UHGV virus genome: UHGV-1780293
DNA from: a virus
Reading direction: 5' to 3' (one strand)
DNA length: 10,980 nucleotides
A model generated the notes under the pieces. The model was not told where the DNA came from and did not search any database. It worked only from the letters and a program-made list of their open reading frames with translations. Both the position numbers and the translations under genes were made by a program. Below are positions 7,577-10,980 of the stretch, one piece after another. How positions within the stretch are numbered: the first letter of the stretch is position 1; every line of letters starts with the position of its first letter.

Positions 7577-7749
7577 TGTCAGGAGTCCTGAATAGTGATT
7601 AGAGGAGTCACATGTCGGCATCAGTTTCCCGACGATGCGCATCCTCCGCCATCAGTCCCGGATGGCTTATCACTGACACAACAGCACCTTAGCGAATCGC
7701 GGGACGCGACTCAGTAGCCTTGCCGTGTATTCATCACGGCGAGGTATTC
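7577..7749. promoter_or_regulatory. Divergent late-promoter region between O (leftward) and P (rightward)
   Basis: 173-nt intergenic region separating two divergently oriented late operons. In P2 this interval carries the Ogr-dependent late promoters PO and PP (established knowledge). No strong sigma-70 -35/-10 pair is visible, and I found no exact TGT-N12-ACA dyad, only a GTGA-N9-TCAC dyad at 7595..7611 and partial matches. Confidence 0.5.
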
Positions 7750-9522
7750 ATGACCATCACCACAGACACCACTCTTTTACACGACCCGCGTCGTCAGGCG
7801 GCGCTGCTGTACTGGCAGGGATTTTCCGTGCCGCAGATTGCCGCCATGTTGCAGATGAAACGCCCGACGGTGCAGAGCTGGAAACAGCGCGACGGCTGGG
7901 ACAGCGTTGCCCCCATCAGCCGTGTCGAAATGAGTCTGGAAGCGCGGCTGACCCAGCTCATCATCAAACCGCAGAAAACCGGCGGTGACTTCAAGGAAAT
8001 TGACCTGCTCGGACGCCAGATTGAACGACTGGCACGGGTAAACCGCTACAGCCAGACCGGCAACGAGGCAGACCTTAATCCGAACGTCGCTAACCGCAAC
8101 AAAGGCGGGCGTCGCAAACCGAAAAAGAATTTTTTCAGTGACGAGGCCATCGAAAAGCTGGAGCAGATTTTCTTTGAGCAGTCTTTCGATTATCAGTTGC
8201 ACTGGTATCGCGCCGGGCTTGAGCACCGCATCCGCGATATCCTGAAATCCCGCCAGATTGGCGCGACGTTTTATTTTTCCCGCGAGGCGCTGCTGCGCGC
8301 CCTGAAAACCGGCCATAACCAGATTTTTCTGTCGGCCAGTAAAACGCAGGCGTATGTGTTCCGTGAATACATCATCGCCTTTGCCCGGCTGGTTGACGTT
8401 GACCTGACCGGTGACCCGATTGTCCTGGGCAATAACGGCGCAAAACTGATTTTTCTCGGCACCAACTCCAACACCGCGCAGAGCCATAACGGCGACCTGT
8501 ACGTCGACGAGATTTTCTGGATCCCGAATTTTCAGGTACTGCGTAAGGTGGCATCAGGTATGGCCTCACAGAGTCACCTGCGATCGACCTATTTCTCCAC
8601 CCCGTCCACGCTGGCGCACGACGCCTACCCGTTCTGGTCGGGTGAACTGTTCAACCGGGGACGCGCCAGCGCCGCCGAACGCGTGGAAATCGACGTCAGT
8701 CATAACGCCCTTGCCGGTGGGCTTCTCTGTGCGGACGGCCAGTGGCGACAGATTGTCACCATTGAGGACGCCCTGAAAGGTGGCTGCACGCTGTTCGACA
8801 TTGAGCAGCTCAAACGCGAAAACAGCGCCGACGATTTTAAAAACCTGTTCATGTGTGAATTTGTTGACGACAAGGCGTCGGTGTTCCCGTTCGAGGAGCT
8901 GCAACGCTGCATGGTCGACACGCTGGAAGAATGGGAAGACTATGCACCCTTTGCCGCCAATCCGTTCGGCTCCCGCCCGGTATGGATTGGTTACGACCCG
9001 TCACACCGTGGCGACAGCGCCGGATGCGTGGTACTGGCACCGCCGGTGGTGGCCGGTGGCAAATTCAGAATACTTGAGCGTCACCAGTGGAAAGGCATGG
9101 ACTTTGCCACCCAGGCGGAATCCATCCGCAAACTCACCGAAAAATATAACGTTGAATACATCGGGATTGATGCCACCGGCCTCGGTGTCGGCGTGTTCCA
9201 GCTCGTGCGCTCGTTCTATCCCGCCGCGCGCGATATCCGCTACACGCCGGAAATGAAAACCGCAATGGTGCTCAAGGCAAAAGACGTTATCCGCCGTGGC
9301 TGTCTGGAATATGACGTCAGCGCCACCGACATCACCAGCTCGTTTATGGCTATCCGCAAGACCATGACCAGCAGCGGACGCAGCGCCACCTATGAGGCCA
9401 GCCGCAGCGAGGAAGCCAGCCACGCCGACCTCGCCTGGGCGACCATGCACGCTCTGTTAAATGAGCCACTCACCGCCGGTATCAGCACCCCGCTGACATC
9501 CACCATTCTGGAGTTTTACTGA
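7750..9522 (+). CDS. P: Terminase large (ATPase) subunit
   Basis: ATG at 7750 preceded by GAGG 8 nt upstream; 590 aa (MTITTDTTLLHDPRRQAALLYWQGFSVPQIAAMLQ...), which I recognise as P2 gpP. The track's TTG start at 7720 is rejected. The stop overlaps the Q start (TGATG). Confidence 0.93.
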   Translation: MTITTDTTLLHDPRRQAALLYWQGFSVPQIAAMLQMKRPTVQSWKQRDGWDSVAPISRVEMSLEARLTQLIIKPQKTGGDFKEIDLLGRQIERLARVNRYSQTGNEADLNPNVANRNKGGRRKPKKNFFSDEAIEKLEQIFFEQSFDYQLHWYRAGLEHRIRDILKSRQIGATFYFSREALLRALKTGHNQIFLSASKTQAYVFREYIIAFARLVDVDLTGDPIVLGNNGAKLIFLGTNSNTAQSHNGDLYVDEIFWIPNFQVLRKVASGMASQSHLRSTYFSTPSTLAHDAYPFWSGELFNRGRASAAERVEIDVSHNALAGGLLCADGQWRQIVTIEDALKGGCTLFDIEQLKRENSADDFKNLFMCEFVDDKASVFPFEELQRCMVDTLEEWEDYAPFAANPFGSRPVWIGYDPSHRGDSAGCVVLAPPVVAGGKFRILERHQWKGMDFATQAESIRKLTEKYNVEYIGIDATGLGVGVFQLVRSFYPAARDIRYTPEMKTAMVLKAKDVIRRGCLEYDVSATDITSSFMAIRKTMTSSGRSATYEASRSEEASHADLAWATMHALLNEPLTAGISTPLTSTILEFY

Positions 9523-10556
9523 TGAGCAAGAAAAAAGGGAAAACACCGCAACCTGCGGCAAAAAAAATGACCGCCAGCGCCCCGAAAATGGAGGCATTCA
9601 CCTTTGGTGAGCCGGTGCCGGTACTCGACCGCCGTGACATTCTGGATTACGTCGAGTGCATCAGTAACGGCAGATGGTATGAGCCGCCGGTCAGCTTTAC
9701 CGGTCTGGCGAAAAGCCTGCGTGCTGCCGTGCATCACAGCTCGCCGATTTACGTCAAACGCAATATTCTGGCCTCGACATTTATCCCGCATCCGTGGCTT
9801 TCCCAGCAGGATTTCAGCCGCTTTGTGCTGGATTTTCTGGTGTTCGGTAATGCGTTTCTGGAAAAGCGTTACAGCACCACCGGTAAGGTCATCAGACTGG
9901 AAACCTCACCGGCAAAATATACCCGCCGGGGGGTGGAAGAGGATGTTTACTGGTGGGTGCCGTCCTTCAACGAACCGACAGCCTTCGCGCCCGGCTCCGT
10001 GTTTCACCTGCTGGAGCCGGATATTAATCAGGAGTTGTACGGCCTGCCGGAATATCTCAGCGCCCTTAACTCTGCCTGGCTGAATGAGTCGGCCACGCTG
10101 TTCCGCCGCAAGTATTACGAAAACGGCGCACATGCCGGATACATCATGTACGTCACTGATGCCGTGCAGGATCGCAACGATATCGAAATGCTCCGCGAAA
10201 ACATGGTGAAGTCGAAAGGCCGCAACAACTTTAAAAACCTGTTTCTCTATGCCCCGCAGGGGAAAGCTGACGGCATTAAAATTATCCCCCTCAGTGAAGT
10301 CGCAACGAAGGACGATTTTTTTAATATCAAAAAAGCCAGCGCCGCTGACCTACTGGACGCGCACCGCATCCCCTTTCAGTTGATGGGCGGCAAGCCGGAG
10401 AACGTCGGGTCGCTGGGTGATATAGAGAAAGTGGCAAAGGTCTTTGTCCGCAATGAGCTTATCCCGTTACAGGACAGGATCCGCGAGATAAACGGCTGGC
10501 TCGGTCAGGAGGTCATCCGCTTTAAAAACTACTCACTGGACACTGACAACGGCTGA
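9522..10556 (+). CDS. Q: Portal protein
   Basis: 344-aa ORF (MSKKKGKTPQPAAKKMTASAPKMEAFTFGEPVPVLDRRD...), which I recognise as P2 gpQ. It is the last gene before cos, as in P2. Confidence 0.93.
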   Translation: MSKKKGKTPQPAAKKMTASAPKMEAFTFGEPVPVLDRRDILDYVECISNGRWYEPPVSFTGLAKSLRAAVHHSSPIYVKRNILASTFIPHPWLSQQDFSRFVLDFLVFGNAFLEKRYSTTGKVIRLETSPAKYTRRGVEEDVYWWVPSFNEPTAFAPGSVFHLLEPDINQELYGLPEYLSALNSAWLNESATLFRRKYYENGAHAGYIMYVTDAVQDRNDIEMLRENMVKSKGRNNFKNLFLYAPQGKADGIKIIPLSEVATKDDFFNIKKASAADLLDAHRIPFQLMGGKPENVGSLGDIEKVAKVFVRNELIPLQDRIREINGWLGQEVIRFKNYSLDTDNG

Positions 10557-10561
10557 ACATC

Positions 10562-10583
10562 GCCGCCTGCGGGCGGCTTTTTT
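10562..10583 (+). terminator. Rho-independent terminator of the P-Q operon
   Basis: GCCGCC-tgcg-GGCGGC stem-loop followed directly by TTTTTT, 6 nt after the Q stop codon. Confidence 0.75.
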
Positions 10584-10725
10584 ACACCCCGTCATCACGC
10601 CCTCACACGCTCATCACCGCACAAAAAATCCCGCAGACACACCAACGCCCCAGCAGGCCAAGTAAACGCCTTCACGACGCGCTCAGACGCTGAAAAAATA
10701 AAATCAGCACCACCGCCAGCGCGCA

Positions 10726-10744
10726 GTGCTTTCCCCGCCTCGCC
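10726..10744. other. cos: cos site: 19-nt cohesive-end sequence of P2 type
   Basis: Plus strand GTGCTTTCCCCGCCTCGCC, the reverse complement of GGCGAGGCGGGGAAAGCAC, which I recall as the P2 19-nt 5' overhang. Its position about 170 nt beyond the Q stop agrees with P2 organisation. Confidence 0.8.
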
Positions 10745-10879
10745 CGCCCGCTTCATGAGTCGGTTTTAATGCAGTTGCATAGATACTATGGATCCGCACC
10801 AGCTCTGACCGCAAGCAGCTGGAACGGGCATCCCCGACGCATGCAAAAACATTCACTTGTTGCATGCACGGCTTATTTA

Positions 10880-10980
10880 ATGACAAATCAACCTAAGCGT
10901 CACCGCAGTTCCCACAAAAAACGTAACACCATGATTTTAGTGATATTTATGACTTTTTTAATTGCTTATTTAAGTCCGAC
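10880..10980 (+). CDS. Possible 5' end of an AT-rich cargo ORF running off the right edge (alternative start at 10931); could instead be AT-rich regulatory DNA
   Basis: The only reading frame with no stop across the AT-rich terminal segment; the other two plus frames and all three minus frames contain stops here. Translation from 10880 is MTNQPKRHRSSHKKRNTMILVIFMTFLIAYLSP, a basic stretch followed by a hydrophobic run. No convincing Shine-Dalgarno precedes either ATG. Confidence 0.2.
   Translation, partial: MTNQPKRHRSSHKKRNTMILVIFMTFLIAYLSP

Follow-up and report, generated by a model that had tools for sequence, protein, structure and literature searches.

The window, by which we mean the whole 10,980-nt stretch of DNA analysed, is a P2-like prophage segment and was collinear with prophages of E. 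coli. Its right end carries the large terminase gene P, the portal gene Q with a terminator behind it, and the cos site, and the first base past cos is 10745 (Table 1). The linear phage records H56/H57 terminate at cos. Q and cos are only ~170 nt apart, and in relatives the distance from cos to the replication endonuclease gene A is ~990 nt. A 60-aa minus-strand ORF at 10704-10886, which spans cos, was dismissed as mechanical.

Table 1. Features at the right end of the window, in window numbering
Feature	Position	Strand	Basis or remark
Large terminase gene P	~7720-9522		
Portal gene Q	9522-10556		stop at 10556
Rho-independent terminator 3' of portal gene Q	10562-10585	+	hairpin GCCGCCTGCGGGCGGC followed by a T-run; same place as P2 terminator tQ
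cos, 19-nt cohesive end GTGCTTTCCCCGCCTCGCC	10726-10744		reverse complement of the P2 cosR feature, identical
Conserved cos flank, last piece of the universal P2 backbone	10745-10780		P2 alignment and portal-identical loci
Hotspot leader allele, position-equivalent to the P2 old-tin promoter	10781-10896	+	P2 transcript-start alignment
Inverted repeat GCATGCAAAAA / TTGTTGCATGC, overlapping the -35	10839-10867		11-nt arms, 91% complementary, 7 nt apart
10-bp direct repeat GCTTATTTAA, two perfect copies	10871-10880 and 10964-10973		spacing 93; the copies bracket a 93-bp unit
Open frame noted earlier, judged not to be a gene	10880-10980	+	broken frame, no Shine-Dalgarno sequence, no family match
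A6 homopolymer, variable in length	10916-10921		13 relatives with the window-type tail compared
Start of an 18-codon hydrophobic micro-ORF, MILVIFMTFLIAYLSPPY in relatives	10931-10980	+	coding status doubtful
Sigma-70-like site TTAAAA, 16 nt, TAAAAT	10934-10961	-	only consensus site in the window tail; reads towards cos

We aligned the tail to the P2 right end, as the first-pass annotation had proposed, and observed similarity only through cos and about 30 nt beyond it (to ~10773), after which it fades; old and tin are absent. Of the ten loci examined that encode exactly the same portal protein and carry other cargo, eight diverged precisely at 10780, and the remaining two matched the window up to 10868 or 10873. 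Matches to most phage records extended to ~10778-10787. Because the portal-identical loci and P2 lose homology there, we place the end of the universal backbone at 10780. The flank at 10745-10780 is presumably part of the packaging signal. On these alignments, the DNA to the right of 10780 is one allele of a variable region.

The sequence became AT-rich towards the edge. The first-pass annotation had counted 12 G or C in the last 50 nt, against about 57% G+C in gene P, and both values held: 12/50 is the minimum of all 50-nt windows in the 10,980 nt (the next-lowest has 17, at ~7545), and P measured 57.3%. It had also reported that G+C drops abruptly past cos. The drop is real, but it sets in ~130-150 nt beyond cos and not at cos (48.7% G+C in 10745-10896, 35.7% in 10897-10980 and 24% in 10931-10980). 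The two ATGs it had picked out, 10880 and 10931, share one frame that is open to 10980, and the product MTNQPKRHRSSHKKRNTMILVIFMTFLIAYLSP is basic and then hydrophobic, as described.

The locus itself is already known and well described as variable: the gpA-gpQ region adjoining cos is a hotspot of anti-phage cargo in P2-like prophages (Rousset et al. 2022, PMC9122126). In P2, old, tin and orf91 lie on this same side of cos, before gene A (P2 annotation, NC_001895). The window end adjoins cos downstream of portal gene Q, and its placement inside the hotspot was borne out by the portal-identical loci, which diverge there (at 10780, 10868 or 10873) and carry different genes. The exact portal protein of the window was found in thousands of contigs; the ten that we examined all carry other cargo, and at least seven different gene sets follow cos among them. 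Their cargo included DprA with a second gene that had only a faint phosphoribosyltransferase match, FRG with a gene that had a weak reverse-transcriptase match, a metallo-beta-lactamase fold protein, AAA_23 with MC4 and DUF676, and DUF7380. Relatives whose backbone is identical or almost so also hold an AAA ATPase, SIR2 and an M78 peptidase at this locus, whereas in the window allele both sides of cos are free of annotated genes, the gene A side being judged from relatives. The earlier observation is accurate and identified the locus correctly.

In one group of relatives (L006-type: Z1323HEC0477, Salmonella phage MET_P1_103_31 and several viral contigs), a three-gene insert of 2.56 kb lies exactly between the equivalents of 10896 and 10897. 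In Z1323HEC0477 it occupies L006 3121-5677, and the same gene set was present in L007, L025 and L029. The insert encodes a CapP-like M78 peptidase (PADLOC capP, E = 1e-30) and two proteins of 199 and 312 aa that had no family match; it may be an uncharacterised defence cassette. Because this cargo is inserted exactly there, the window allele corresponds to the 10896/10897 site without an insert. E24377A carries an AAA ATPase gene and a gene for a 145-aa protein between the portal gene and cos (L009 2931-4678), and NMBU-W12E19 carries a SIR2-family gene interrupted by an IS5-like element in the same interval (L010 1052-4725). Since the cargo of these two genomes lies between Q and cos, the hotspot has insertion sites on both sides of cos. 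Elsewhere in the window, only ~55 nt (1317-1371) lie between the genes that align to V (baseplate) and S (tail) in L001 and L002; in these close relatives the interval measures ~1 kb and includes a hypothetical gene of 247 aa, and in P2 it is occupied by the nonessential orf30. With an interval of only ~55 nt, this second variable site of the prophage (V-S) is also without cargo.

To follow the tail past the window edge, we turned to relatives. Four complete E. coli genomes (EC2641, 504838, Ecol_AZ159 and Ecol_542) matched 10560-10980 over the full length at 94-98% identity. The PGAP annotation of these four (L001-L004) contains no gene, accessory or defence, between the portal gene and gene A, where the longest conserved ORF is 37 aa, and the gene A stop codon lies ~755 nt past the equivalent of the window end. 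The tail was found in 13 loci (L001-L004, L009, L010 and L013-L019), which comprise the four complete genomes, E24377A, NMBU-W12E19 and seven viral contigs and were 97-99% identical to 10720-10978. In 13/13 loci the alignment ran to 10977/10978, and the next base opened, with no gap, a common AT-rich segment (~755 nt, 39% G+C, 97-100% identical to EC2641) that abuts the gene A stop, the far boundary of the hotspot. This segment occurred in 150/5,426 complete E. coli genomes, always adjoining gene A. All 13 loci are cargo-free on the gene A side of cos; in E24377A and NMBU-W12E19 the cargo lies between Q and cos. A 26-mer from the leader within the AT-rich segment was absent from all 185,579 species-representative genomes, which lent no support to the idea that the segment came from another species. 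An Rfam scan (E<=1) of the equivalent 1.4 kb returned only sub-threshold RNAI and Phe_leader matches, which correspond to the terminator hairpin.

The first-pass annotation had proposed that novel cargo, if present, starts at the window end. This was not borne out among the relatives, as none of the 13 has an annotated gene before gene A. An early stop past 10980 with no genes before A, the pattern that it had named as speaking against its proposal, was found in all 13. Because the tail leads straight to gene A in every relative that shares it, the Q-A hotspot of this lineage seems to hold no defence-sized gene. By extrapolation from these relatives, the window itself would continue without a gene.

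We examined the leader between the cos flank and the AT-rich DNA for expression signals. It shows a promoter-like layout, in which a 17-nt spacer separates a -35 TTGCAT (10860-10865) from a weak -10 ACAAAT (10883-10888). In the alignment, the transcript starts annotated for P2 old-tin (33426/33424) correspond to 10894/10896, which would place a transcript start at 10894-10896 if the predicted promoter is active. A consensus promoter scan made no call at this old-tin-equivalent position. The putative promoter resembles that of P2 old-tin (NC_001895) in its position relative to cos, its orientation, the TTGCAT, the 17-nt spacer and the aligned start; the region differs from that of P2 in its weak -10, in the loss of similarity ~30 nt past cos and in the absence of old, tin and orf91. 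The inverted repeat that overlaps the -35 may be an operator.

Of the 82 E. coli genomes with a match covering >=80% of the query, nearly all ended at 10896 and only 4 reached the window end, and matches ending at 10896 recurred in loci with cargo inserted after 10896. The EN1077-type allele (84 E. coli records at 80-90% identity and many viral contigs) has a single copy of the direct repeat and is without the 93-bp frame-bearing unit. The repeat pair resembles a scar left by recombination where the cargo joins, and we infer a deletion history from the single-copy allele; together these alleles suggest that short-repeat recombination occurs there. In L006-type loci, DNA homologous to the minus-strand sigma-70-like site lies ~300 nt upstream of the M78-peptidase gene and on the same strand. 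This site is possibly a relic of the promoter of the leftward cargo operon seen in these relatives.

The micro-ORF that starts at ATG 10931 was intact in 13/13 window-type loci. A 19-aa variant, MILLEFM(A/S)LFL(I/V)TCLNPPY, was present in eight cargo-bearing (L006-type) loci (8/8). The frame was thus open in 21 loci, although the two forms differ by ~20% at the DNA level and by a 3-nt indel that preserves the frame. This persistence would fit a real type I-toxin-like membrane peptide or leader peptide encoded by the micro-ORF alone, as would the strong hydrophobicity, the Ibs-type size and the promoter-like site on the opposite strand. However, the codon differences between the 18- and 19-aa forms all change the amino acid and none is synonymous, which gives no sign of purifying selection. 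The micro-ORF was also interrupted in L008/L021 and absent from 17 fetched loci, all of the EN1077 type, and no Shine-Dalgarno sequence precedes its ATG. It shares with the type I toxins (Ibs/Sib) the size of 18-19 aa and the extreme hydrophobicity, but it lacks a ribosome-binding site and coding-type conservation, is absent from many related alleles, and had no match to Sib or any other antisense RNA family by Rfam at E<=1. These data suggest that the micro-ORF is probably non-coding, and we consider a functional peptide unlikely.

A second alternative is that the window genome departs from all relatives found and carries unseen, possibly novel cargo at or just after 10980. The window passes all four junctions of the relatives (10780, ~10870, 10880 and 10896) and was 99.3% identical to the cargo-free allele over 10700-10978, and the 13/13 tail carriers are cargo-free on the gene A side of cos. 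All of this argues against such cargo. What speaks for it is the high variability of a hotspot in which one identical portal protein goes with at least seven cargos, together with the edge itself: the second-to-last base, 10979, differs from all relatives, and the exact window tail was found nowhere in the collections scanned. In an exact-match scan of genome, viral and metagenome collections, the terminal 25-mer of the window, a 24-mer from the micro-ORF and a window-specific 29-mer returned nothing or only relatives. On balance, unseen cargo at this position appears very unlikely, and the cargo-free allele is the better account of the window end.

The first-pass annotation had read the frame from ATG 10880 as a possible membrane-protein ORF, which did not withstand comparison with the relatives. 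In the closest relative, L002 (EC2641), the frame encodes MTNQLKRHRSSHKKRNTMILVIFMTFLIAYLSPPY, 35 aa, and then stops; by extrapolation, the stop in the window would fall at 10985-10987, that is 5-7 nt past the edge. The A-run within the frame counts six A in the window; of the 13 relatives, 3 also have six, 4 have seven and 6 have eight. Because these differences are not multiples of three, ATG 10880 is cut off from the hydrophobic part in 10/13 relatives. Such length variation fits neutral slippage in non-coding DNA. No Shine-Dalgarno sequence precedes ATG 10880. The ATG sits in the spacer/-10 of the predicted promoter, upstream of the position aligned with the mapped P2 old-tin transcript start; with a start at 10894-10896, it would not be on the transcript if that promoter is used. 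The exact 35-aa peptide was absent from a collection of ~15 billion predicted proteins, and the 33/35-aa and 37-aa peptides gave nothing above noise in NCBIfam, PHROGs and Pfam. An OLD-family ATPase (P2 old) was rejected, in agreement with the earlier remark that the N-terminus does not resemble one: the frame has only 35 codons, the P2 old start does not align, and there was no Pfam/NCBIfam match.

We therefore read the frame from ATG 10880 as most likely one of 35 codons that arose by chance in non-coding DNA. That it encodes a real 35-aa small membrane protein with a single hydrophobic helix behind its basic N-terminus, perhaps a toxin-like or conversion peptide expressed in the lysogen, is highly improbable: its basic-then-hydrophobic layout is plausible and the frame is intact in the window and the three relatives with six A, but besides the evidence above, the frame-bearing segment is wholly missing from the EN1077-type allele.

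A counterpoint to an empty locus comes from the ~755-nt segment beyond the window, which contains a 37-aa ORF that is conserved and has a strong ribosome-binding site. In L002, a copy of the nrdDG promoter and the sequence up to a terminator span 12436-12910 (~10996-11470 in window numbering). We found that 118 nt of it (L002 12436-12553) share 80.5% identity with a site that all E. coli genomes searched carry (5426/5426) and that in K-12 is the treC-nrdD intergenic region, the nrdDG promoter. The local alignment to the nrdD promoter scored 127, against 18 +/- 2.5 for shuffles, and this homologous stretch agrees with the K-12 probe sequence given in PMC12176259. FNR activates the nrdDG promoter, and repression acts through two NrdR boxes spaced 31-32 bp apart (PMC2892513). 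The prophage copy keeps TTGAGCTATATCAA (13/14 to the FNR consensus), TTGATGCAAA and a TAAAAT -10, and it has two NrdR-box-like 16-mers (14/16 and 12/16 to consensus) 32 bp apart. It differs from the host promoter in that it precedes a 37-aa ORF and not a reductase; its regulation is predicted from these shared elements.

The similarity to nrdD does not continue past the -10 into its leader or gene. What follows there is a leader of ~170 nt, then a GGAGG ribosome-binding site and the 37-aa ORF MKKCYYCILVLALFGYPYGSPSGLSVNVSNIHVSIIL, with a strong bidirectional terminator 3' of it. Neither the ORF nor its leader was judged homologous to the leader or N-terminus of nrdD, as the score (23 vs 18.5 +/- 2.3 for shuffles) was not significant. 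None of the 37 loci has a broken copy of the ORF; across its 9 alleles we counted 7 synonymous and 6 non-synonymous codon changes, and databases list the peptide only as a hypothetical protein, in roughly a thousand contigs. A 39-aa ORF in the AT-rich segment was set aside; it is broken by a 2-nt insertion in the EN1077 type. We tentatively raise the idea, which we hold to be less probable than its negation by a wide measure, that the AT-rich segment is a compact conversion cassette common to many P2-like prophages, in which a captured nrdDG-type promoter, responsive to anaerobiosis through FNR and to the dNTP pool through NrdR, would drive a conserved 37-aa membrane-type peptide. This promoter and ORF unit is the only element with some novelty potential, and it lies outside the window.

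Overall, our data suggest that 10745-10980 is a cargo-free allele of the hotspot, a reading that we consider likely: non-coding DNA to the right of cos in a P2-like prophage, with no defence-sized gene and with a chance frame from ATG 10880. The tail would consist of three layers. The first (10745-10780) would be the conserved flank of the packaging site, and the second (10781-10896) one leader allele of the hotspot, standing where P2 has the old-tin promoter. The third (10897-10980) would be AT-rich junction DNA in the repeat-bounded 93-bp unit, probably left by recombinational exchange of cargo; the last 84 nt would then be such a junction and not the start of a gene. The tail would lead from there straight into the ~755-nt AT-rich segment that abuts the gene A stop, as it does in every relative that shares it.

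For the choice of loci to follow up, this allele is most likely without a defence system, and extending the sequence is unlikely to reveal a new one. AT-rich junction DNA in hotspots readily yields short basic and hydrophobic frames, which calls for caution in reading them as genes. Surveys of annotated genes would score such loci as empty, although they contain a conserved ORF of 37 aa preceded by a copied host regulatory region. If the segment is indeed a conversion cassette, it would be missed by every gene-based survey of the hotspot, and lysogens would gain from it a micro-protein expressed under certain conditions, which may act against phages or as a fitness factor.
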